The notes under the pieces are model-generated. The model was not told the origin of the DNA. It worked only from the letters and a program-made list of their open reading frames with translations, and ran no database searches. Position numbers and translations under genes: made by a program. DNA of 64,000 nt from an uncultured bacterium (GTDB lineage: Bacteria; Zixibacteria; MSB-5A5; UBA10806). The stretch covers positions 64,001-128,000 of the forward strand of contig CBEUCH010000001.1 in assembly GCA_965541585.1 (NCBI GenBank), in the 5' to 3' direction. Every line of letters begins with the position of its first letter. Position 1 is the first letter of the stretch. Positions 36,226 through 57,995 of this stretch are shown piece by piece.

Positions 36226-37176
36226 TCAGGGGCTACTGAAGGACGTAGCCACCCTCCATGTAAGACTTTCCGAGATCTGGCGGCCATTGACATAATCGTA
36301 GATCGGGATCGCCAGCTCTAAATCGAAAGATATGCCAGCCGCCGGATTGAGTTCAAATCCGGGCGTAAGATAGATCCAGTTTCCGCCGGAGTCGCGGTAA
36401 GCGCCACCTCCGTACGGATCATTCGGAGATCCGTCATAGGCATCTCTGGCGGAGATTCGGCTCTGAAAACCTATAAATGGGTTGACATGATCTGATAGCA
36501 CCGGAAACAATATATGCCCGATGAACTGAAACTCATTTCCGAATCGATAGCCTCTATCGTTTTTTGTGGGGATACGGTATGCGGCGCTGGCGTAAGCGAT
36601 ACCCCATCCGAATGATTGATTGTAATATCCGCTCATTATGAAATCGAATGCGCCCGTACCGACCTGCTGGCTGGATGACATAATGCCGAAGCTGTCTTCT
36701 TCGATATAGCCGCCCGTGGGAGCTTTCAATCCAAAACCGAGTGCCAATTCCGGTCGGCGGGGCGAGATCGGGGCTGTGAGCTTGAGTTTCACGATCCCTA
36801 ATATGTCCCCGATACCGGCCGTTTTACGGACGACGCGATCATCCAGAAGCGATAGCCTGGTCCACTTGAATGGAATAATAACGGTCGCCGCTAACCGATC
36901 GGAGAACCCATAAGAGGCGGAGGCGATTAGAAGCTGAGTCCTGTTCCAGCGATGGAGGGGATCGTTTATTTCATCGCCCTTAAGAAGCGTTCTATCAAAA
37001 AGTGAATTCTCATAGGCGACCCTGAATTCGTACTGGCCTTTCAGCAGCGTTTTTTGCCCCACGTCGCCGGCAGGGAGCGTTACTCTCCCGCAACACGATT
37101 GTGCCCCGCCTGTTTGCGGGTAGAGGATGACCGCCAGGATCAACCAGATCGAATAGCTAACCGGGAAAATTCTCAC
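36226..37176 (-). CDS. Outer-membrane beta-barrel ('transporter'/MetA-pathway-like) with N-terminal CC motif
   Basis: Signal peptide then QSCCG; GIGDI, GLKAPTG, QVGTGAFD, YRFGNE motifs. Confidence 0.7.
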   Translation of the reverse strand: MRIFPVSYSIWLILAVILYPQTGGAQSCCGRVTLPAGDVGQKTLLKGQYEFRVAYENSLFDRTLLKGDEINDPLHRWNRTQLLIASASYGFSDRLAATVIIPFKWTRLSLLDDRVVRKTAGIGDILGIVKLKLTAPISPRRPELALGFGLKAPTGGYIEEDSFGIMSSSQQVGTGAFDFIMSGYYNQSFGWGIAYASAAYRIPTKNDRGYRFGNEFQFIGHILFPVLSDHVNPFIGFQSRISARDAYDGSPNDPYGGGAYRDSGGNWIYLTPGFELNPAAGISFDLELAIPIYDYVNGRQISESLTWRVATSFSSP

Positions 37177-37868
37177 GGGATCACCGTTATAGTGGTGGAT
37201 CCGGAACCGGTGGCGCGCTCAGGATCTCTAACCACCACCCATACGGAATAGGCGGTTGGACAGCAGGATGGGACGGGCGCTGTCCATGTTACCGCCGTCC
37301 CTTCGCCGCTGAAACTGCCCGCAGCGGCTCCCCATTGGTAGACAAGCAGATCGTCGTCACCGTCGGGATCGAAGGCCCCGACCGTGATCTCCGTTTCGCC
37401 CAATGACGGTAAAATGTCGGGATTGGAACTGATAAAGTTAATCACCGGGGGCCGGTTGTCAGAATAAGCATCGATGACCGACACCTCGATGGTGCTATTT
37501 ACTGCTGCCAGTCTATCATCCTCCACGAAGACCGAGATCAAATATTGACCGATACCATCCGGAGCGGTCCAGGTGGCGGTGGTGCCGTTGCCTGTAATTC
37601 TTCCCCCTGATGCGTGCCAACCGTAGGAAAGCAGATCGCTTTCAGGATCGACGGCGTTAACCACGATGCTTGTGCTTCCACCGATCCCGAGAGTATTCGG
37701 ATCAGCCACAAAAGAAACGATCTCCGGAGGCTGATTCGCTGACAGGTCGTTACTTGGGTCGCTTCCCTTGTCACTCCCGCAACTCCAAATCAGGAGTGAG
37801 AAGCTAACGGCAAAGGCTATTAATATGGCTGGTTTCGGCAAAATTGACCTGATTCTCATCGTTGCCAT
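37173..37868 (-). CDS. Lipoprotein with two Ig/PKD-like repeats
   Basis: Lipobox LIWSC; two N.PP.I...DP(E/D).D.L.Y.W....G...G.G....WTAP repeats; SCCP near C-terminus; 4-bp overlap with the downstream gene. Confidence 0.75.
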   Translation of the reverse strand: MATMRIRSILPKPAILIAFAVSFSLLIWSCGSDKGSDPSNDLSANQPPEIVSFVADPNTLGIGGSTSIVVNAVDPESDLLSYGWHASGGRITGNGTTATWTAPDGIGQYLISVFVEDDRLAAVNSTIEVSVIDAYSDNRPPVINFISSNPDILPSLGETEITVGAFDPDGDDDLLVYQWGAAAGSFSGEGTAVTWTAPVPSCCPTAYSVWVVVRDPERATGSGSTTITVIP

Positions 37869-38108
37869 TTTTCCTTCTTTCAGAGTTTCCCAATCCGGCT
37901 AACTCGGGGAATTCGCCTGAACCTGCTATCCTGGCCAGAGAGTCTCCTGATAATAATTATCGTCATCAGCTGCCCCTTCTCATAAACCGAAATGGTATCC
38001 TGAAGGTTTACGGAAAATGAGAAAAACACCGAAAATCTCCGATTTTTTTACCAAAAATGCATTAATCGCAAAATCAAATAAACGATGCCATGACCAGCAA
38101 GTGGCCAG

Positions 38109-38741
38109 CTATTCATCTTCGCTCGATTCGGCAGCAGGAGTATCGGGCGTTTTTACCAATTCGGCCTGATAACCAATATCTTCCAGATCGGAGATTATGC
38201 CTTGTATTGAACTGTCGGAAGGAGGATAATTCTTCCATTCAACCAGCAATGTCCTCTCTTCATAATTTGCCTCGCTTTTCATGACGTCATCATTTTGGCG
38301 GGCCACACTGTTGACCGCCGCCTCGCAACCTGAGCAGGTCATGCCCTCCACCGCGAATAACATCGAGGTGGCGTCGTCGACCGCTGTCTCGTTGCCCTCC
38401 TTTTCGCCGCCGAAAAGAGCACCGCTGTAATACGGAAAGGCCATCAAAGTCAGGGCGAAGACCGATGCTATCCAGAGGGATGTTTTGTTGATTCTCCCGC
38501 GATTCGGTGTTGCGCAGGAACCGTCTGCGCAAACCTCTTTGGGTTTCCTGTATGCGAAATAGAAGCCTGTCCCCAGGAATATGAAAGTAAAAGCCATGAA
38601 GTAGGGGCGATATTCAGCCAGGGCCGCGGCAAATCCGAGCCCGCCAATGCCTAAGCCCACCAGGATTAATGGTCCGATGCAGCAGGCGGAGGCCAGGGCC
38701 GCAGAGAAGAATGTTCCAATATTCAGCATTCTCGCTTTCAT
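38109..38741 (-). CDS. merT: MerT-MerP (HMA) fusion mercury transporter
   Basis: ASACCIGPL, YRPYF, C...SC loop, then VEGMTCSGC heavy-metal-associated domain. Confidence 0.88.
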   Translation of the reverse strand: MKARMLNIGTFFSAALASACCIGPLILVGLGIGGLGFAAALAEYRPYFMAFTFIFLGTGFYFAYRKPKEVCADGSCATPNRGRINKTSLWIASVFALTLMAFPYYSGALFGGEKEGNETAVDDATSMLFAVEGMTCSGCEAAVNSVARQNDDVMKSEANYEERTLLVEWKNYPPSDSSIQGIISDLEDIGYQAELVKTPDTPAAESSEDE

Positions 38742-38742
38742 C

Positions 38743-39006
38743 TTATTTCTCCTTGGCTTGATGATTTATCAGTTGACTCTCAGCTTCTTTAGATTCTGGC
38801 ACACCTCGAAACACCACCTTGTCGTTGAACAGAGTTGCGGGAACAGACAGGATGGAATGTTTTTTTGCCAGCGTGCTTCCTTCCTCGGAAGCAATATCAA
38901 CCTCCCTGTAATCAAAATAAAATCTCTTGGCCATACTCGCCCATAGTTTCCTGGCCCCCGGGCAGATCGGGCACCAGTCGGCTATTATCAAGGTGATCTC
39001 AGTCAT
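38743..39006 (-). CDS. Small thioredoxin/glutaredoxin-like protein
   Basis: WCPIC and SVP motifs. Confidence 0.8.
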   Translation of the reverse strand: MTEITLIIADWCPICPGARKLWASMAKRFYFDYREVDIASEEGSTLAKKHSILSVPATLFNDKVVFRGVPESKEAESQLINHQAKEK

Positions 39007-39316
39007 TTTTGGCGTCCTTCAGGGCCTTAACTATCATCTCTCTCTCAGGAACTCCGCCGAATTGTCCGTTATGTTGATAAATCCTGCATTTCATACCGAA
39101 GTCATCTCTTCCCTTTGCCAGGGGGTCGATATCCAGGCCCTGTATCCGGAGAGTGGGAGAGCCGAGAAATTTCTCGACCGCCGCCTGCTGCTCTGATTCT
39201 ACCTTGATAATCTCAATTTTGGATCCGGGGGCGTATTCATCCACGCATTCTTTCAGGATCTCCAGGGCTTTTTCATGAGTGGGGCAGCCATCAAAATAAA
39301 GCAGTTCAATTTTCAT
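38999..39316 (-). CDS. Thioredoxin-like DUF2703/'DF family' protein
   Basis: LLYFDGCP, FLGSPTLRI.G.D, CRIY...G.P signature. Confidence 0.75.
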   Translation of the reverse strand: MKIELLYFDGCPTHEKALEILKECVDEYAPGSKIEIIKVESEQQAAVEKFLGSPTLRIQGLDIDPLAKGRDDFGMKCRIYQHNGQFGGVPEREMIVKALKDAKND

Positions 39317-39726
39317 TTTTCGACCTCCTCGGTCATCAAAGCCTCAATAATCGGACAGCTTTTGATACTCTGTTGCCTATCGCACTGTGTTGCGAGATTC
39401 GAGAGAATGCTATCCAATTTTTGAAGGTTGATTATCTTTTCTCTTATCGCTTCCAATTTCTTCAGCGCTATGTCTTTTACCTCATCGCAATCGGTTATCT
39501 CCCCCCCGCTGAGCTTAAGCAGTTGTTTTATTTCGCTTAAAGAGAAGCCCAGCTTTTGTGCGCGCTTCACGAAACGGATTCGGTTGACTGTTTCCTCGTT
39601 ATATTGCCTATATCCTGACGGCGAGCGATCCGGTTCGGGAAGAATCCCCTGCTTTTCATAATATCTGATTGTCTCGATATTCACTGCAGCCATTTTTGCC
39701 AGATTTCCCCTTTTAAGCGCCTTCAT
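39313..39726 (-). CDS. merR: Hg(II)-type MerR family regulator
   Basis: ETIRYYE, SGYRQY, GFSLSEI; three Cys (CDEV, QCD, SCPII) at the Hg-binding positions. Confidence 0.85.
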   Translation of the reverse strand: MKALKRGNLAKMAAVNIETIRYYEKQGILPEPDRSPSGYRQYNEETVNRIRFVKRAQKLGFSLSEIKQLLKLSGGEITDCDEVKDIALKKLEAIREKIINLQKLDSILSNLATQCDRQQSIKSCPIIEALMTEEVEK

Positions 39727-40825: not shown

Positions 40826-42415
40826 ATGATGGATAATGCGAAGCTTGATTTGCTAAGAAAAGCCTCGATTTTCAATTCTCTCTCGGATGACAGCCTGGCT
40901 AAGTTGGCGGAAGTCTTTGAGCAGCAAAAATATCCGGCGGGGAGCTACATCTTTAGAGAGGGAGAGGCGGGCGACAGCTTTATGCTTGTTGAAAGCGGCA
41001 CGGTAGAGGTAATCAAACACGGATCTTCTGCCGATGCCGATGTCAACCTGGCTAGCCGGGGACCGGGAGAGATCCTGGGAGAGATGGCCCTGATAGAGGA
41101 TTCGCCGCGGTTCGCAGATGCAGTAACCCGGGATGACGTAACTGTTTTAGCTCTTTCCAAGAGTCAGTTTAAGCATCTGCTGGCCGAAAATCCGATGGTC
41201 GCCATGGAAATCATGAGTTCGCTGTCGTCCAAATTGCGGCAGGCCGACCTCCAGATGATAAGCGATCTGGAGAAAAAGAATGTCGAGCTTGAGTCTGCCA
41301 ACGTTGATCTGACCAGGGCCAAAAACTTCAGGGACAAGATCATTGATAATGCGCCGTTTTTCATGATTATTACCGATAATTCTGGCAATATCGTTCTCAT
41401 AAATGAGTCGGCGGAGAAAATATTCGGTCATTCATTCGATGAGATCGAAGGCAAACCTATCAGCGCCATCATCCTGGCGGCCGGGGAGCACGATGTTCTG
41501 GGCGAGATTAGTGAATCTTTGAGCCACAATGGCGTTTGGAGAGGGCAGCTAATCACCGAAAGGTCTGATGGCTCTCAGACGATTATCGATCTGATAGTGG
41601 TGAATGTCGGGGAAGACAACAGCAAAAGCCAGTCAGTGCTTTACATGGGCAATGATGTTACGGAGGAAAAGCATATGCAAAGGCAGGCTTTTCAGCTGGA
41701 GAGGATGGCCACTCGCGGCGAGATGGCCGCTGAGATTGCTCATGAACTGAACAATTATCTTTCCATAGTCTCCGGCAACCTCGAATTACTGGGTATGGAT
41801 ATCGGACGAGGGAAGTTCGATAAAGTGGAAAAGAAAACCACCGCCATGAAAAACGGCTTGGTGAGGATCACTAAATTCGTCGAGGGTCTGATGTCAGTAG
41901 CCCGGCCCGAGACAAGGATGGAAATCTTCGATATACATCAGTTCCTCGATAACGAGTTGTTCTTCTTGAAGCCTCAACCCAAGTATAAGGGGATTGAATT
42001 TATTTCGCGCTGGGGTAACGATATCCCGGCCATTGAAGCGGACGGCGGGCAGCTTCAACAGGTGTTGTTCAATCTATTTAATAATGCCTCCGACGCCCTG
42101 TCTGAAATTCCGCCCGGGAAGCGGAGAGTGACGATTTCGACAGCATATTCCAGTTCGGATGAGACCATAACGCTGACCATAAGCGATAACGGTTGCGGCA
42201 TGTCGGAGGACGATTACGGCAGGGTATTCCGGCAGCATTTTACTACGAAGAAAACCGGGCATGGATTCGGGCTTCTGGCAGTCAAGCGGGCGATCAAGAG
42301 CCATGGTGGGAAGATATCAGCATCACCCGGTCCCGAGGGAGGCGCCAGTTTTATGATTGAATTGCCCAGACGCTTGAAGCTACGTGTTGAAAAAGCGGTC
42401 GAGGCCACGGCTTAA
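40826..42415 (+). CDS. Cyclic nucleotide-binding PAS histidine kinase
   Basis: IFREGEAGD...GEMALIEDSPRFADA (cNMP cassette); coiled coil; PAS; AHELNN; N, G1, F and G2 boxes. Confidence 0.9.
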   Translation: MMDNAKLDLLRKASIFNSLSDDSLAKLAEVFEQQKYPAGSYIFREGEAGDSFMLVESGTVEVIKHGSSADADVNLASRGPGEILGEMALIEDSPRFADAVTRDDVTVLALSKSQFKHLLAENPMVAMEIMSSLSSKLRQADLQMISDLEKKNVELESANVDLTRAKNFRDKIIDNAPFFMIITDNSGNIVLINESAEKIFGHSFDEIEGKPISAIILAAGEHDVLGEISESLSHNGVWRGQLITERSDGSQTIIDLIVVNVGEDNSKSQSVLYMGNDVTEEKHMQRQAFQLERMATRGEMAAEIAHELNNYLSIVSGNLELLGMDIGRGKFDKVEKKTTAMKNGLVRITKFVEGLMSVARPETRMEIFDIHQFLDNELFFLKPQPKYKGIEFISRWGNDIPAIEADGGQLQQVLFNLFNNASDALSEIPPGKRRVTISTAYSSSDETITLTISDNGCGMSEDDYGRVFRQHFTTKKTGHGFGLLAVKRAIKSHGGKISASPGPEGGASFMIELPRRLKLRVEKAVEATA

Positions 42416-42427
42416 GGTAACAACATC

Positions 42428-42769
42428 ATGGACCCCCTGTTTTTCTTTTTACTGGGACATTTTATTGGCGATTATGCTCTTCAGACCGATAAGATGGCCG
42501 CCAATAAACAGAAAATCAGCGGTCTTCTAATCTTTCATGCAACGATTTATTCTCTGACTATAGTCGCCTCTGCCGGCGTACATGATCTATTCTACCGGCC
42601 TTCCATAATCTTAGCTACGTTACCATGGATAATCCCGATTTTTGCTATCCACGTTTTTCAGGATTTGATCAAATCGAAATATCTTAGCAGTTCACGACAG
42701 TCTTATTACATCGATCAGGCTCTGCATCTGGCCGCGCTTTACGCCCTGCGGATCATTGTAGGAGGATAA
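42428..42769 (+). CDS. DUF3307 family membrane protein
   Basis: HFIGDYALQ, H, HVFQD, DQALH motifs. Confidence 0.85.
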   Translation: MDPLFFFLLGHFIGDYALQTDKMAANKQKISGLLIFHATIYSLTIVASAGVHDLFYRPSIILATLPWIIPIFAIHVFQDLIKSKYLSSSRQSYYIDQALHLAALYALRIIVGG

Positions 42770-42785
42770 TATCATAGATGAATCG

Positions 42786-45700
42786 GTGAAAGTGCATCCG
42801 AAGCTCCAGTGCCTCGGATACCTCTCGCGGCTTGCGTTGCAGCAGGTAAGAGATAAGAGAAATCTGATCGAGATCCGGGGAAGTTTCCTGTTCGCGGACC
42901 TTTCCGGTTTCACGGCCATGTCTGACAGGCTGAGTGCCTCCGGACGTCTCGGCTCCGAGGAATTAGCATCGACGATCAACAAAATTTTTGATCCCCTGCT
43001 TGAAATAATATTCTTTTACGGCGGCGACGTTGTGAAATTCGGAGGCGACGCTGTGCTTGCTTTATTCGACGATAACAATCATACGGCAAGAGCAGCATCG
43101 TGCGGCTTCTCGCTTCTCGAAAGCATCGGGCCATCCTGTAAGGTTTCTACGAGTGTGGGAGATTTCGCAATTGCGATTCATATCGGTATATCCAGTGGTT
43201 CAGCGCTTTCGGCGATTGTCGGCGGCGAGGGAGGGCGGTACGATCATCTCTTTTGCGGTCCGGATATCTCGCTGGCCTGTGCGGCTGCGGATGAAGCCGG
43301 ATCAGGAGAACTTCTCCTGGCGGAAAACTGTAAGGTCTATCTGGAAAACAACCTGATTGAAATCTCATCGGATAAACGATTTCTATCGATAAAAAAGCCT
43401 GCTGAATCGCTGGCACAACCGGCTGAGGATAATCGAAAAATGATAGATTTAGGGCAGTCGCGGCTAAGACCATTCTTACCGGCAGGGCTCTGGGAAAAAA
43501 TAACTATTGCTGCAAATGGGAGAATCGAAGGAGAACATCGCCATATAACCGCCATGTTTATGGGAATCGACGGGTGGCATAATAATCTGGTTTCGCAGGG
43601 CGATAACCGGGGAGGATATTACCGGTTTATAAACAAACATATCGTTGAGTTGTTTGCCGTTACGGAGAAATACGGAGGAAATATCGTTCGGCTGGATCCT
43701 ACAGATATAGGAGAAAGAGCGCTGGTGCTTTTCGGGGCACCGGTGCTGCGGGAGAATGCTCCGGTAGATGCCTTGAAGGCTGCGCTGGAGATGAGGAAGA
43801 TCACCGATGAAATTTCGCAAGCGTTGCCGAAACCTTTGAAGATCAAGATCGGAATTAACTCTGGTATCAGCTATGTGGGGGACGTTGGAGGGAGTTTCCG
43901 TCGGGAATATACCGCCATGGGGAAAGGGGTCAATCTGGCTGCCCGCTTGATGGCTAAGGCCGATTGGGGAGAGATAATTGCAGGACCGGTAACACTGGAG
44001 GCAGCAAGGGGGTTTTTCAGGACCGAGGTGAAAGGTGTTTCCGCTGTGAAGGGAATTGAAAAGACCGTTACTCTGGAAAGAGTTATCGCTGAAAGAGAAG
44101 CTTTGGTTTCGAGAAAAGGATCCCCGAATCTGATAGGTAGAGAAAGAGAGATTCAGATTCTGGATGAATTCGTGGTGAACGTGTTGGCCGGCCAGGGTGG
44201 ACTCGTACAGATATTTGGGGAGGCCGGCTCGGGGAAATCAGCCCTGATGGAAAAAACTAATTCGGAGTTCGAAAAAGATAAAATCGTAATTTTGCGAGCC
44301 GCCTGTTTTCAGCACACATCCAATACGCCGCTTTATCCCGTGGGAGAGATTCTCCGCCAGAGCCTTGGAGTTACGGAGCAGGATAGCAGAGAGGAAAGAA
44401 AACACAGGCTTCAGTCTGCCCTCTCCGATGCCGGCAGTCTGGAATGGGAAGGACTCCTGTGCAGGCTGATGGGCTACACCATCAAACCGACACCGGAAAT
44501 AAGTAATCTCTCTGAAACCGCAAAGTGCAACAGAGCATTCCAATTAATTAATTCCCTTCTTCTTCTCCGTTGCGGCGGGAATCCGGCCTGCATCATAATT
44601 GACGATTTGCACTGGAGCGACCCGACCACAATTGAATTCTTAAACCTCCATACCGGAATACTTGTGGAGAATGGAATCAGCGTTTTGCTGATATCCCGTA
44701 TCTCGGAACTGGTTCCCCGGTACGATTCCTCGATCATCATCGATCTGGGATTGCTGGACGAAAAAGCCAGCGCGAGGCTCTTCAGATCGGTGCTGAAGAG
44801 AAAGGTTCCGGATGACTTCGTAGCCGAGATCGTCAAAGCCTCCGGGGGAAACCCGTTTTACCTGGAGGAAATGGCAAAGGCAATACTCGATATGGGTATC
44901 GAAGCCTGGTCAGAATCGATAGGTATACCGGACAGCGTCGAGCGGGTGATAACAGCCAGAATCGACCGGCTCGATGAAATGGTCAAAACCACAGTCAGGA
45001 CAGCCAGTATCATAGGCAGGATATTTGGTCTGGAGGATCTGACGAATATTTTCCCGTTGCAGGAGAATAAATCCCATATCCCGGAATATCTCGATAAGTC
45101 CGCGGCGCTGGATATCACGCCTCTGGAGCGTACAGAACCGGTGATCGAATATGGCTTCAAGCACATTTTGACAAAAGAGGTTGCGTATTCGGGCTTATCG
45201 TATAAATCCCGTAAAATGCTTCATCATGCACTTGCAGGATATTATCGAATTTGCGGGCGAGGCCGAGGCATAGGGCCTGAATTGATAGGCTATCATTTTG
45301 AACGTACTGAGACCCCGAAGATGGCGGTTCCTTATTACCTGTTGGCGGGGCAGGCTGCCGGGAAAGCATTCTCGAATCCCGAGGCGATATTCTATTTCGA
45401 AAAGGTCTTAGAGCTTCTGGGTCCCGATGGCAATCCGAAGATGATATGCCGCGCCAATCTGGGGCTGGGCAGGGTTTTCAAGTTAACAGGGAAATATGAT
45501 AACGCAGAAAAACATCTCAAAATTGCGTCTGGAGCCTCCGCCACCTGTCGATTCTGGCGTTCGGAGGCCTTGAAGGAGCTCTCGGAACTGTACCGGATCA
45601 AGACCGAATTCGACAAAGCATCTGAGATTTTAAGTATGCTTCTGGATCTGGACGAAGGCAATCCTACGTATCAGGCAACATATCAGAACGGCATGGGGGA

Positions 45701-46832
45701 GATCGCCAGACGAAAGGGGGATCTCGATCCAGCGCTGAAGCATTTTTCCTCTGCGCTGCAATACAGGGATAGGATTGATTCCGGGTTGACGGCTGAGATA
45801 CTCAATAATACAGGAATTTGCCTGTGGATGCTGGGGCGCCTTGATGAAGCCCTGCTAAAATATGGGGATGCCAGGGCCATTTATCTGGAGAAGAGAGATC
45901 TCCAGGGTATTGCCAAGATCTCGAACAACTCCGGTATTATCCAGGAGCAGAAGGGTAACCTGGCCGGGGCGGCGGAGTCCTACGGGGAAGCGGCAGCCGT
46001 TTTCGAGAGGATCGGAGATATCCGGTCCCAGGGCTTCTGCCATGGCAACCTGGCGACAAATTTCATTACCAGGGGCATACCCGCTATGTCCAGAGAATAT
46101 ATTGACAGGGCGCTGCAGCTGTTTGAGAAAATCGGTGATCGCGGCAGCTATGCCTTAACCGTTGGGAATCTGGCCGATTGGCACTACCTGGTAGGCGACA
46201 ACGAGGAGGCATCACAGGTTTGCGAACGCACCATCCAGCTGGCGAGTGAATTGAAGAATGAAGAGCTAATCTGCGAGACCAATATAAGAAAAGCTCTGCT
46301 GATGTTAATGGATGATACGGTTGATCCAATGATCCTGTTAAAAAACGCTTACGAAGAATCAGTGGAGAAAAAATGGCATGATCTCGGAATAAAAGCTGAA
46401 TTTTATCTTCTGGAATGGGAGATCCTGAGAGGACAATCCGGTAATCAAAAATCAGCTTTATCGAAGTTATCGAAATTGAAAAAGAAAAAACCGCCTCCGG
46501 AGTTAATCTGCAAAATAAATAAGCTCAAAGGTTTGTTAGAATATAAAAAAGGCAGTCAAAAAGCGGCTCGTATCTCCCTTATGGCTGCATATCGGGTCGC
46601 CAGGAAATGCGATCTGGTATGCGATTGCCGGGAGATTCTCGGTCTTTATGGCTTTCTCTGGCCGGATTATAGGAGGCCGGTAGAAAAGAGACTGAAAGAC
46701 CTCGAACTGCGGATTTTTGAAAATCTGCATGAGAGAAACGTCAGGCAGATGAAAGCCGGACTGGAAAGAAGGTTGAGTCTCTATCTTTCGATGGCTAACT
46801 CTCCCGTAAAGCAACCATCGACTGTCGTGTGA
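42786..46832 (+). CDS. Tandem class III nucleotide cyclase - STAND AAA ATPase - TPR protein (soluble adenylyl cyclase-like architecture)
   Basis: C1: FADLSGFT...KFGGD; C2: EYTAMGKGVNLAARL; Walker A GEAGSGKS; Walker B IIDDLHW; GNPFY; FKH; many TPRs. Confidence 0.9.
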   Translation: MKVHPKLQCLGYLSRLALQQVRDKRNLIEIRGSFLFADLSGFTAMSDRLSASGRLGSEELASTINKIFDPLLEIIFFYGGDVVKFGGDAVLALFDDNNHTARAASCGFSLLESIGPSCKVSTSVGDFAIAIHIGISSGSALSAIVGGEGGRYDHLFCGPDISLACAAADEAGSGELLLAENCKVYLENNLIEISSDKRFLSIKKPAESLAQPAEDNRKMIDLGQSRLRPFLPAGLWEKITIAANGRIEGEHRHITAMFMGIDGWHNNLVSQGDNRGGYYRFINKHIVELFAVTEKYGGNIVRLDPTDIGERALVLFGAPVLRENAPVDALKAALEMRKITDEISQALPKPLKIKIGINSGISYVGDVGGSFRREYTAMGKGVNLAARLMAKADWGEIIAGPVTLEAARGFFRTEVKGVSAVKGIEKTVTLERVIAEREALVSRKGSPNLIGREREIQILDEFVVNVLAGQGGLVQIFGEAGSGKSALMEKTNSEFEKDKIVILRAACFQHTSNTPLYPVGEILRQSLGVTEQDSREERKHRLQSALSDAGSLEWEGLLCRLMGYTIKPTPEISNLSETAKCNRAFQLINSLLLLRCGGNPACIIIDDLHWSDPTTIEFLNLHTGILVENGISVLLISRISELVPRYDSSIIIDLGLLDEKASARLFRSVLKRKVPDDFVAEIVKASGGNPFYLEEMAKAILDMGIEAWSESIGIPDSVERVITARIDRLDEMVKTTVRTASIIGRIFGLEDLTNIFPLQENKSHIPEYLDKSAALDITPLERTEPVIEYGFKHILTKEVAYSGLSYKSRKMLHHALAGYYRICGRGRGIGPELIGYHFERTETPKMAVPYYLLAGQAAGKAFSNPEAIFYFEKVLELLGPDGNPKMICRANLGLGRVFKLTGKYDNAEKHLKIASGASATCRFWRSEALKELSELYRIKTEFDKASEILSMLLDLDEGNPTYQATYQNGMGEIARRKGDLDPALKHFSSALQYRDRIDSGLTAEILNNTGICLWMLGRLDEALLKYGDARAIYLEKRDLQGIAKISNNSGIIQEQKGNLAGAAESYGEAAAVFERIGDIRSQGFCHGNLATNFITRGIPAMSREYIDRALQLFEKIGDRGSYALTVGNLADWHYLVGDNEEASQVCERTIQLASELKNEELICETNIRKALLMLMDDTVDPMILLKNAYEESVEKKWHDLGIKAEFYLLEWEILRGQSGNQKSALSKLSKLKKKKPPPELICKINKLKGLLEYKKGSQKAARISLMAAYRVARKCDLVCDCREILGLYGFLWPDYRRPVEKRLKDLELRIFENLHERNVRQMKAGLERRLSLYLSMANSPVKQPSTVV

Positions 46833-55262: not shown

Positions 55263-57995
55263 ATGAATAGAGAGCTTGATTTTAACGCTCAAAGCGTAAA
55301 TGACGCCATAGAAGGTCAGATGCAACGGGAGGGAATAAAGCCCAAACCGGTAAAGCCGCTCATTGCACCCGTACTAGCCAAACCCCATACCGCGATTTAT
55401 AAAATGCATCGCTACTATGCCAGAAGGCCTCATAATGTTTTTGCGAAACTGATTGAGCATTACACCAACCCAGGAGATATTGTTCTCGACCCGTTCTGCG
55501 GGGGTGGGGTAACTGTGGTAGAAGGATTGAAGCTAAAACGTCGAGTTATCGGGGTAGATATTAATCCTTTGGCGACGTGGATTACGAGAATTGAAGCTGA
55601 GCCCGTTGATTTTGATAAGCTGGCAGCCGTTTTCGGCGATTGGCAACAATGGGTGGAAGGAAATGTTAGCCCCCTTTACAGGACAAAATGCACAAAGTGT
55701 GGCAAAATGGCCGTTGCTGAATGGTACGAATGGTCTAATGTCGTGAAATGCGTCAATTGCGAAAAAGCTGTTGTCTTGGCAGAGGCGAAAAAGCTGCCGA
55801 ATGCTGTTTACGAATGTACCAATAAAAAGTGTAAGGCAAAAATAAAACCGGACAACTGTGAACGCCTGAAAGATAAGATGCTGTCAGTTTTTGTGAATTG
55901 CTCTAAGTGCTCGAAGAAGTATATACGGGATGCTCAGGCCAGCGATATAAGGCTTGCAAAATCCATAGCCAGAGAAGAGAAATTTACAATAAAGAGTAAA
56001 AAACTACGGATTCCGCCAGATAGCTTTCCTGACATGAACTCGGTTCGAGAAAACAATCTTTATTCAAAAGGATTCTACAAATTCCGTGATTATTTCACTC
56101 CAAGGCAGAGGGTGTCGCTGGGATTCATAAAAAAATGGATCTCCAAGAACATAGAAAGAAGCGATGAGGCCATAACAAACGGCATTCTTCATCTATTCTC
56201 CGCCTTGCTGCGTTATTCTAATAAACTCGTATTTAGGAGTCAGGGATGGCAAGGAGGTAATCCTATTGAATGGGCTGGTCATATTTATTGGCCGCCGGAA
56301 GTTTATGTGGAAATGTCACCCCTGCCGCCTATGCTGAGGCGATACGCAGCTCTTAAAGCAGGAAAACGCGAGCAGAACAAATGTGTTGGAAGTTTCTATC
56401 GGCCTCCGAAAGGACCCAGACCATGGGAAGAGATAACAGAAAAGGCCACCTGTTGGTTGCTTACTCAATCTAGTCATGAGTTGAGAATACCAGATAACTC
56501 GGTTGATGCAGTAATAACGGATCCACCGTTTGGTGGCAATGTACAATATGGGGAGCTGTCGGATTTCTATTTGGTATGGATCAAGGAATTTCTGGATCTT
56601 AAGAATGGGGTGGACAAGGAATTTGAGGCCATTGAAACAAGACATCAAGGATTCGAAGGGGCGAAAGACAGAGCCTTTTATGAGGAAATGCTTTTCAGAG
56701 TGTTCAAAGAATGCCGAAGGGTAATCAAGCCGGATGGATGGATGGTCCTGACATTCCATAACAAAGATGTTGGTGTTTGGATGGCTATGAACCGGGCAGC
56801 TATCAGGGCCGGTTTCAGACTTCCCACTGTTGATGAGTGCAAGAATAGAGGAATGGTGTATCAACCTCCAATTGAAAACTATACGCAAACAATACATCAA
56901 AAAAGAACCGGTTCAATGTTAGGAGATTTCATTCTTTCATTCCGACCCCATCAGCCGATTTCCGAATTGGATGCCATAAAAGAACAACTATCTATCGATG
57001 AAGAAAAAGAGCTACTAGAGAAATGTGAAGAGATAATAAGATATAATGGTGGTGCTGACGAGACAACTTTGATGACAGGTTTGTTGCCATACTTTTCGCA
57101 AAAAGGACTATTAGCACGGTTGGCGAAGTTTGATCTAAGGTTACTCTTGTCTAATGGAAAGTATGTCTTTATTAAGAGAGAAAAAAAATGGTTCATGCGA
57201 GATATGGTGGAGGAATCAGGAGCGCTAAAATATATAGATATAATCCCTGCTGAGAATCTAACACAGCAGCTAATTTACAGCCATCTGGCTGAACATAGAA
57301 GAGCCTCACTTGATGAGTTGCTCGTTGTAATTTATTCGCAGTTAGTTAATTCCTATAGGCCCCAAATGACAACAATTGGCAAGGTTCTGAATAAATATTG
57401 CAAAAAGACAAAAGTTAAGGGCCATAAACGAGAATTATACGTATGGAATCCCAAAGCCAAGACCCCTGAGGAGATTGAAAGAGTATTGGCCGCCCAAACT
57501 GCATTAGATTTGGCGGCCCTTGTGGTCAGTGACCACGATAGCATAATAAAGATTATTTCGGAATTCGCAATAAAAGCGGGCTATAATGTTCATATAGGCG
57601 AAACTGAGCAAAGAAAATCCCCAAAATTAGAAGCAATAAGCGTAAAGTTAACCGGTCTGGAATTGGGCTTATCCCCTGAGACCTTTAGATTGATAAAAGA
57701 AATAGACACAATTATTTTGAAAGGTTTTAATAATATGTTGGCTGCTGTTGAGGTGGCAACTACGATCTCTACCTTTAATAAGGCCGTAAATGACAGATTC
57801 AGGAATTTGCTTACGATTGCACCGAATCTAGATGTAAAATTAAACGCTGTTGTTTCAGATAATGATTTCGATAAAGCCTATAAAGAATTATACACGCCTG
57901 CGAACGTGAAATCTGGTCTTGCGAAAAAAGTGAATTTGATTAAGATTAGCGAGCTAAATACTCAAGATTTCTTAAGGAAAGTTGTCGGTGGCTAG
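55263..57995 (+). CDS. Amino (N6/N4) DNA methyltransferase with zinc-ribbon insert and C-terminal restriction-endonuclease-like domain
   Basis: Motif I VLDPFCGGG; four Cys pairs; motif IV TDPPF; C-terminal H...G..V.IG...EID...VEV segment; AT-rich. Confidence 0.8.
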   Translation: MNRELDFNAQSVNDAIEGQMQREGIKPKPVKPLIAPVLAKPHTAIYKMHRYYARRPHNVFAKLIEHYTNPGDIVLDPFCGGGVTVVEGLKLKRRVIGVDINPLATWITRIEAEPVDFDKLAAVFGDWQQWVEGNVSPLYRTKCTKCGKMAVAEWYEWSNVVKCVNCEKAVVLAEAKKLPNAVYECTNKKCKAKIKPDNCERLKDKMLSVFVNCSKCSKKYIRDAQASDIRLAKSIAREEKFTIKSKKLRIPPDSFPDMNSVRENNLYSKGFYKFRDYFTPRQRVSLGFIKKWISKNIERSDEAITNGILHLFSALLRYSNKLVFRSQGWQGGNPIEWAGHIYWPPEVYVEMSPLPPMLRRYAALKAGKREQNKCVGSFYRPPKGPRPWEEITEKATCWLLTQSSHELRIPDNSVDAVITDPPFGGNVQYGELSDFYLVWIKEFLDLKNGVDKEFEAIETRHQGFEGAKDRAFYEEMLFRVFKECRRVIKPDGWMVLTFHNKDVGVWMAMNRAAIRAGFRLPTVDECKNRGMVYQPPIENYTQTIHQKRTGSMLGDFILSFRPHQPISELDAIKEQLSIDEEKELLEKCEEIIRYNGGADETTLMTGLLPYFSQKGLLARLAKFDLRLLLSNGKYVFIKREKKWFMRDMVEESGALKYIDIIPAENLTQQLIYSHLAEHRRASLDELLVVIYSQLVNSYRPQMTTIGKVLNKYCKKTKVKGHKRELYVWNPKAKTPEEIERVLAAQTALDLAALVVSDHDSIIKIISEFAIKAGYNVHIGETEQRKSPKLEAISVKLTGLELGLSPETFRLIKEIDTIILKGFNNMLAAVEVATTISTFNKAVNDRFRNLLTIAPNLDVKLNAVVSDNDFDKAYKELYTPANVKSGLAKKVNLIKISELNTQDFLRKVVGG

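Follow-up and report, generated by a model that had tools for sequence, protein, structure and literature searches.

A stretch of 64,000 nucleotides from an uncultured member of the Zixibacteria (GenBank assembly GCA_965541585.1, contig CBEUCH010000001.1, positions 64,001 to 128,000) was analysed and is here called the window, its source genome being named G000. It carries three consecutive genes on the + strand whose products may form a cyclic-nucleotide circuit. Gene 1 encodes a histidine kinase with a domain for binding cyclic nucleoside monophosphates (cNMP), gene 2 a small DUF3307 protein, and gene 3 a class III nucleotide cyclase fused to a STAND NTPase and a tetratricopeptide repeat (TPR) array (Table 1). 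An earlier reading of this DNA from its letters only (the sequence-only reading) had described three co-oriented genes separated by 12 and 16 bp, which the coordinates of the open reading frames (ORFs) bore out. From their spacing and conservation, the three genes are likely an operon. Scans for promoters and terminators gave numbers expected by chance (12 promoters found and 9.6 +/- 2.7 expected; 8 terminators found and 7.6 +/- 2.7 expected).

Pfam domains in gene 1 were cNMP_binding, PAS, HisKA (24.6 bits, just below the 26.9 cut-off) and HATPase_c. Gene 2 matched DUF3307, and gene 3 contained two Guanylate_cyc domains, AAA_16 and TPRs; its best NCBIfam match, the kinase/cyclase fusion TIGR03903, was far below the cut-off. 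The motifs singled out by the sequence-only reading were located as claimed, namely the phosphate-binding cassette (G85-E86...R95) and the kinase core with H306 in gene 1, the split of the cyclase residues between C1 (D38, D88) and C2 (N383, R387), and the Walker A (G478-S485) and Walker B (D607) motifs and TPR array of gene 3. It was also right that no response regulator lies in the window, since none of the 40 receiver domains of G000 (98% complete) maps there.

The kinase has the phosphate-binding cassette G-E...R and the C-helix base-contact position of CRP-type receptors, as well as its H, N and G boxes, and shows no transmembrane-like segment (best 19-residue hydropathy 0.92). G000 has four proteins with cNMP domains, and the canonical GE...R cassette is found only in this kinase. 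No class III cyclase gene other than gene 3 was found in the genome, and the Walker A motif of gene 3 is intact.

Table 1. Coordinates, in the window, of the three genes and of their domains and key residues
Feature	Position	Strand	Basis
Gene 1, predicted reader: cytoplasmic cNMP-binding/coiled coil/PAS/histidine kinase, 529 aa	40826..42415	+	Pfam, orthologues
cNMP-binding domain, aa 34-122, cassette G85-E86...P94-R95-F96	40925..41191	+	Pfam, conservation
D141, C-helix residue at base-reading position (PycTIR N143, CRP S128)	41246..41248	+	Alignment to 8jsk, 4ev0
PAS domain, aa 168-278	41327..41659	+	Pfam
H306, phospho-acceptor His in EIAHELNN	41741..41743	+	Sequence motif
HATPase_c with N, G1 and G2 boxes	42041..42373	+	Pfam, motifs
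Gene 2, DUF3307 protein of 113 aa: helical bundle with a predicted metal site; candidate hydrolase for removing the signal	42428..42769	+	
Gene 3, predicted writer: C1-C2 class III cyclase/STAND NTPase/TPR, 1348 aa	42786..46832	+	
C1 cyclase domain: metal-binding D38 and D88, K84, C165	42873..43385	+	Alignment to 4cm2
C2 cyclase domain: R302 (base-reading site), T376, N383, R387	43518..44075	+	Alignment
R302, Arg at position of sAC K334, CyaB Lys, Cya2 Glu	43689..43691	+	Alignment
STAND NTPase: Walker A G478-S485, Walker B D607, GNP motif, winged-helix region	44130..45335	+	
TPR array, predicted sensor	45423..46295	+	Pfam

Distribution and invariant residues of the unit

A set of 239 Zixibacteria genomes was searched, in which all three genes occurred together in 79 and none of them in 139; as related genomes are not independent, no p-value was attached to this co-occurrence. 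DUF3307 was found in 82 genomes, always in one copy, and the profiles of C1-C2 and of the kinase N-terminus matched 85 and 94 genomes, respectively. Among 79 DUF3307 sites from genomes other than G000, 77 lie between the kinase and the cyclase and two are of a SatD type. The gene order is fixed at all 77 sites (73 complete, four cut by contig ends), and two further DUF3307 sites, together with that of G238, which was read from coordinates, also fit the layout. Co-conservation of the three genes, on which the sequence-only reading had staked its proposal, was thus found. The cases of unmatched orthologues (G231, G020 and G079) all break at contig ends, and in four genomes (G087, G165, G177 and G219) the match is confined to the second half of the cyclase, in what look like other cyclases. 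All 41 close DUF3307 hits in metagenomes, which may overlap the phylum genomes, are preceded by the kinase gene, followed by the cyclase gene, or flanked by the two. A scan of all genomes with a single DUF3307 protein returned only two loci, and a plasmid search one weak hit.

Frequencies by family ranged from 10/12, 9/10, 17/20 and 5/5 genomes in f1, f2, f5 and f4 to 13/86 in f9. The flanking genes change between families and the trio is retained, with no conserved fourth cytoplasmic gene across the 40 loci examined. A concatenated-domain tree of 69 loci was mostly grouped by family, with mixing among f7, f9, f14, f17 and f18, a single f5 copy falling within f9, and a genus of f1 placed inside f2, suggesting that the history of the unit is mainly one of vertical descent with losses and some transfer.

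At a median identity of about 35%, D38, D88, R302, N383 and R387 of the predicted writer and E86, R95 and D141 of the predicted reader are invariant. In the cyclase, D38, K84 and D88 were kept in 77/77 loci, N383 and R387 in 73/73 scored and T376 in 71/74 scored. In the kinase, E86, R95 and D141 were kept in 76/76 loci, position 96 being F in 63 and S in 13. The phospho-acceptor position, in contrast, was His in 66 of 77 rows, another residue in eight and a gap in three. Because the phospho-His is replaced in 8/74 kinases, and the Walker A Lys in 6 of the 71 cyclases scored, neither phosphorylation nor ATP switching is strictly required throughout the family. Judged from this pattern of residues, the invariant core of the unit appears to be the making and binding of a nucleotide, and not phosphorylation.

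The Walker A losses map to family f10 (six changed, one gap), all of which (L056, L057, L062, L067, L117 and L130) has lost this motif and kept the cyclase residues and the TPRs. In family f16 a clade of relatives of the cNMP-PAS-kinase (L139-L144, L149 and L152) has lost the phospho-His in 8/8 examined, and its kinase gene lies beside a major facilitator superfamily transporter gene in several genomes, in some of which no class III cyclase was found.

D141 aligns with N143 of PycTIR (8jsk) and with the same Asp in the CRP-family structure 4ev0. The position of PycTIR N143 and CRP S128 is described as base-reading in PMC11224242, and D141 was considered as a sign of cGMP or cUMP reading. This was dropped because 4ev0 shares the RRLREAD motif; having the same Asp in a CRP-family protein, D141 does not name the base.

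The cyclase product and the DUF3307 protein

The tandem C1-C2 domains lie in one chain, with the metal Asps in C1 and the transition-state Asn/Arg in C2. Their closest match is human soluble adenylyl cyclase (sAC, ADCY10), both by sequence and by an AlphaFold model (pLDDT 90; best structural match E 6.9e-28, TM 0.80), in agreement with the ADCY10-type cyclase proposed in the sequence-only reading. At E <= 1e-20, 1825 database proteins match C1-C2, several of them named from Chloroflexota. In the bicarbonate site K84 (sAC K95) is kept, but the position of R176 is C165, which is variable; many non-mammalian sACs are also reported to be without R176 (PMC12867704). The second half of the TPR array is conserved like the cyclase domains (0.50 vs 0.51), which would suit a constant TPR ligand.

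R302, which the sequence-only reading had not noted, occupies the site where sAC has its adenine-reading Lys, and was Arg in 74/74 true C2 domains; the one Lys counted came from a C1 domain, at a contig end, that had been assigned wrongly, and was left out of the 74. Database homologues have Arg in 58/58 close cases, and among 62 distant ones Lys in 43, Gly in 10, Arg in five, Ser in three and Ala in one. In the alignment sAC has K334 at this site, CyaB a Lys and the guanylyl cyclase Cya2 a Glu, and R302 aligns with R142 of the cytidylate cyclase EaPycC, which is reported to be needed for CTP and lies four residues before the second metal Asp (PMC11224242). The product may therefore not be cyclic AMP (cAMP), since the adenine-reading Lys is always Arg, as in the Pycsar cytidylate cyclase; an Arg could plausibly reach a smaller base that presents the same donor-acceptor edge. 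However, K334 of sAC is reported to read the base through water (PMC12867704) and the site tolerates change, so that cAMP stays the likelier product. Overall, the residues suggest that cAMP is probably made, cyclic CMP (cCMP) being a doubtful candidate and cGMP or a mixed product equally so.

The model of DUF3307 is a confident helical bundle (pLDDT 95.8). This fold had no PDB match at E <= 0.001 and no sequence match, Foldseek and VIA-align gave nothing significant, and the best structural Z was 7.8, to generic helical bundles. Viral matches to the model were DUF3307 or phiKZ Orf197-like proteins (E > 0.2), and no function of DUF3307 (PF11750) was described in the literature searched. Two moderately hydrophobic segments make membrane association likely. 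The residues H11, D15, Q19, H37, H75, Q78, D79, D96, Q97 and H100 are invariant, and the His/Asp set (H11, D15, H37, H75, D79, D96 and H100) was also invariant in 114 close sequences. In 138 distant representatives H11 and D15 were kept in 138/138, H37 in 137/138, H75 in 118/140, D79 in 115/139, and D96 and H100 in 129/129, and the motif HxxxD...H...HxxxD...DQxxH occurs in these representatives and in phage copies. Seven His/Asp residues that are invariant or nearly so suggest a metal site.

Distant DUF3307 genes also recur near cyclic-nucleotide genes. Of the 39 distant hits in metagenomes, 14 had a gene for a cNMP-binding or cyclase domain within 1 kb and 21 had one within the contig DNA examined, counts that have no background control and come mostly from loci that look interrelated (with a cyanobacteria-like reading), some of them near duplicates. 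The other 18 hits, several on short contigs, had no such neighbour. The neighbours, in several gene orders, included CRP, a CHASE2 cyclase and MscS-cNMP proteins, and at one different-looking locus a cyclase-AAA protein adjoins. Given a circuit otherwise without an eraser, and a candidate metal hydrolase that recurs beside cNMP genes, DUF3307 is tentatively proposed, at less than even odds, as a cyclic-nucleotide phosphodiesterase. Alternatively, it may be a regulatory subunit or a membrane effector. A complex prediction of DUF3307 with C1-C2 (score 0.00, mark 0.32) was uninformative either way, and the nine metallophosphoesterase matches in G000 mean that another phosphodiesterase may exist in that genome.

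The DUF3307 proteins of the unit form a distinct cluster (E going from 1e-19 to 1e-15 after ten representatives). Only two DUF3307 loci outside the unit were seen in the phylum set, L033:6338-7823 (the G039/G163 type) and L099:184-1617, encoding proteins of 245-273 aa. The longer DUF3307 genes of G039 and G163 are directly behind a SatD-family gene, and L033 also adjoins a diadenylate cyclase. The idea that SatD is a cyclase relative was rejected after a profile comparison with one SatD sequence (probability 0.1%). Look-alikes of DUF3307 by its features include many phage members. Six related phage contigs (L159-L164) carry DUF3307 genes that retain the whole His/Asp motif; after these genes come several ORFs in which calcineurin-like phosphoesterase motifs were apparent from the sequence.

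Proposed circuit and alternative explanations

We propose, with a probability of roughly 0.6, that the trio is an inherited Zixibacteria unit that works as a housekeeping cyclic-nucleotide circuit; its single copy, its largely family-wise descent and the lack of a killing effector point to housekeeping signalling and not to defence. In this circuit the STAND-TPR region would gate the single-site, sAC-type C1-C2 cyclase, keeping it inactive as long as a conserved ligand of the cell is not bound. The product, most likely cAMP and possibly cCMP, would then bind the CRP-type domain of the kinase, shifting the C-helix and coiled coil and so setting the state of the PAS-kinase dimer. The kinase would signal to an unlinked response regulator or, in the lineages without the His, by protein contact, and DUF3307 may remove the cyclic nucleotide.

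Several observations weigh against this circuit. No output gene is linked to the unit at the loci compared, so that its end point is not given by the locus; in this respect the sequence-only reading went too far in calling the module self-contained, as neither a response regulator nor any other output gene travels with the trio. R302 is unlike every solved adenylyl cyclase in the alignments viewed. L072 (G016:C9:58300-64024) is a second kinase and cyclase copy without DUF3307, its kinase lacking the His, in a genome that also carries the full unit. Furthermore, 13 genomes have a relative of the cNMP-PAS-kinase without the unit, and no class III cyclase was found in eight of them; 12 of these orphan kinases nest on the tree inside the clade of the unit's kinases. 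The f16 clade of His-less kinases keeps the Arg of the phosphate-binding cassette in 7/8 examined, four of them from genomes with no class III cyclase found, and the His-less orphans of G053, G060, G217 and G227 keep GE...PR, so this writer is not needed for the reader to be maintained. Related genomes are also not independent, and the products of an operon need not be linked one to one for it to persist. Three other genomes, in none of which a class III cyclase was found, speak for the circuit instead: G012 (69% complete, outside the 239) has a same-site kinase without cNMP domain, DUF3307 or cyclase, in G146 a truncated kinase runs into a DUF3307 remnant, and the orphan of G236 has lost the cassette Arg. 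These look like coupled decay after cyclase loss.

The orphan kinases with an intact phosphate-binding cassette in genomes without a detected class III cyclase would be expected if a general cNMP pool were read by several receptors (GAF, CRP-like), the kinase being a convenient neighbour and not a dedicated partner. G000 has three more cNMP-domain proteins and GAF proteins as possible readers of such a pool, and some genomes with the unit carry a second, membrane-type cyclase. However, the other three cNMP domains of G000 are without the canonical cassette, and the gene order of 77/77 loci speaks for a dedicated partner, which makes a shared pool quite unlikely. A further reading, also unlikely, takes the main link to be direct contact between the kinase and the STAND-TPR protein: the kinase would act on the STAND protein, and the cyclic nucleotide would serve as feedback or as a side output. 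A parallel pair of a GAF-PAS-kinase and a Ser/Thr kinase-STAND-TPR protein is present in G000 (C13:37322-42521) and in 20 regions from relatives (12 STAND and 10 kinase N-termini were checked for their domains); no other kinase of G000 is as close to that of the unit as the kinase of this pair (220.7 bits vs 136.8 for the next), and the phospho-His is dispensable in 8/74 kinases of the unit, all of which would agree with such a pairing. Against this, the sister relation of the two kinase clades is supported at only 0.764, the STAND tree (poorly resolved, with sequences from this analysis only) does not join the cyclase-STAND and kinase-STAND modules, and conservation is highest in the phosphate-binding cassette and the cyclase active site, as would suit a unit built around a nucleotide link. 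On the same kinase support and STAND tree, a single origin of the two STAND modules, and with it common descent of the parallel module and the unit, is weakly supported.

Anti-phage signalling was offered as an option in the sequence-only reading and is very unlikely here. In such a system the TPRs would detect a phage protein, the cyclase would answer with a Pycsar-like signal, and either the kinase or DUF3307 would halt the cell. Its attractions are that TPR-STAND proteins are described as common phage sensors in bioRxiv 2026.01.04.697583, that bioRxiv 2026.08.12.744502 predicts an immune role for a clade of cyclases fused to NACHT or AP-ATPase STANDs, that R302 matches the R142 position of EaPycC, that DUF3307 could be a membrane effector, that the distribution is patchy in some families (13/86 in f9) with some mixing on the tree, and that one DNA methyltransferase lies 8.4 kb downstream. 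However, there is no effector gene of the TIR, nuclease or known pore type, and the PADLOC matches cover shared domains only: those of PycTIR on the kinase span just aa 6-172, and DUF3307 has none. When the 34 other ORFs of the window were scanned with PADLOC, the matches were that methyltransferase, at a distance of 8.4 kb, and four of protease or MzaA type, all beyond 20 kb. The unit is present in one copy and close to fixation in f1, f2, f5 and f4, its concatenated tree mostly follows families, its TPR sensor is as conserved as the enzyme, and its neighbours are metabolic and variable; moreover, only 198/589 STAND clades are classed as defensive in bioRxiv 2026.01.04.697583.

A bolder version of the housekeeping circuit would be a cCMP circuit outside immunity, with a CTP-retuned sAC-type writer, a cCMP-reading kinase and DUF3307 founding a new phosphodiesterase family, which we regard as a long shot. 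If it were true, the DUF3307 proteins would be membrane-bound, metal-dependent phosphodiesterases, and their phage copies could act against Pycsar-type defences. The unit bears on cyclic pyrimidine signalling outside phage defence and on the role of the widespread DUF3307. If instead the product is cAMP and DUF3307 is inert, the trio would be an ordinary, though undescribed, lineage-specific signalling operon.

Regarding the neighbouring genes, a DUF302 gene and a MerR/MerT-type cluster lie upstream on the other strand, and a thiolase gene downstream. The heavy-metal cluster (36226-39726, - strand) encodes a MerR regulator, a DUF2703-like protein, a MerT-HMA fusion, a PKD lipoprotein and an unnamed 316-aa protein, and is not conserved with the unit. 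The methyltransferase (55263-57995, 910 aa, with PglX and type II matches) is in a stretch of lower GC (0.41) and is the only defence-like gene near the unit. At 37/63 scorable loci (14 more were too short), a lipoprotein ending in HFSKY is encoded 3' of the cyclase on the same strand (e.g. L051:11584-12243). It has no Pfam name, and its ESM Atlas links are to ZU5 clusters; the G000 copy lies apart from the unit, on another contig (C23:37323-37901). This predicted, ZU5-like lipoprotein could possibly be a fourth, exported component. The parallel module (L073-L092), in which the GAF-PAS histidine kinase directly precedes the Ser/Thr kinase-STAND-TPR gene, occurs in many Zixibacteria, including genomes without the unit, and no response regulator was seen beside it. 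A 1742-aa frame in G000 (C11:92379-97604) reads as a Ser/Thr kinase with STAND, TPR, GAF and sigma-54-type activator regions, and has relatives of 1730-1760 aa in many genomes.

Relation to known systems

The architecture of the cyclase is known and common, cyclase-receptor pairs are known, and the three-gene unit is an undescribed variant. No description of the trio as a unit was found in the literature searched, where no paper naming Zixibacteria turned up either, in line with the sequence-only reading, which had not recognised the arrangement as a described system; the supplementary tables of bioRxiv 2026.01.04.697583 and 2026.08.12.744502 may cover the family. Nor did that literature show a case of a cyclic mononucleotide acting directly on a histidine kinase by way of a CRP-type domain. 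What is added here is how often the unit occurs across the phylum, which residues are invariant and which can be lost, the base-reading Arg, and the orphan kinases that limit the claim.

ADCY10 (4clw, 4cm2) shares with gene 3 the tandem C1-C2 layout with one active site and is its best structural match (TM about 0.8). The residues D47/D99, K95, T405, N412 and R416 of ADCY10, whose roles except that of T405 are described in PMC12867704, correspond to D38/D88, K84, T376, N383 and R387. The two differ in that K334 is replaced by R302, the bicarbonate R176 by the variable C165, and the pyrophosphate-binding K144 by H132; identity is about 22%, and gene 3 is encoded with a cNMP-binding kinase and DUF3307. 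The solved sAC structures that were matched cover only C1-C2. Full-length sAC carries a C-terminal STAND region, and the unit would be a compact, expressible model for STAND-TPR control of sAC-type cyclases. SWACOS proteins combine an N-terminal cyclase or Ser/Thr kinase with a STAND NTPase (Walker A/B, GxP motif) and C-terminal TPRs, and gene 3 fits this layout, as found also in bacterial sAC-like cyclase-AAA-TPR proteins (e.g. of Chloroflexota). Distant relatives of the latter type differ in that 43/62 keep Lys at the base-reading site. For Avs and NLR-like antiviral STAND proteins a cell-killing effector is expected at the N-terminus, together with enrichment beside defence genes; the N-terminal domain of gene 3 is a cyclase.

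As in Pycsar and Pucsar systems, a class III cyclase adjoins a CRP-type cNMP-binding protein. However, the receptor here is a histidine kinase and not a cyclic nucleotide-binding domain (CNBD)-TIR or PycTM-type transmembrane effector, the cyclase is joined to STAND-TPR and resembles sAC more than PycC, the unit is conserved and single-copy, and no defence island surrounds it in this window. PADLOC models labelled PycC scored E 1e-15 or weaker on gene 3. The structure 7r65, which we take to be a PycC, ranked 34/35 in the sequence comparison with C1-C2; sAC came top in both the sequence and the structure comparison, and none of the structural matches listed for the C1-C2 model was titled PycC. 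Clade A PycC also has two cyclase domains according to PMC11224242.

With its H, N and G boxes the kinase resembles those of classical two-component systems, from which it differs in having no cognate response regulator in the operon. Another comparison is offered by XC_0249 of Xanthomonas, the output of which is presumably GGDEF and the neighbouring cyclase of which we take to be XC_0250. In both cases a cNMP-binding domain is placed on a fused signalling enzyme. XC_0249 is described in PMC11224242 as a cGMP-specific CNBD receptor, whereas the unit studied here has a PAS histidine kinase output, a cyclase predicted to be gated by STAND, and a third conserved gene in between.

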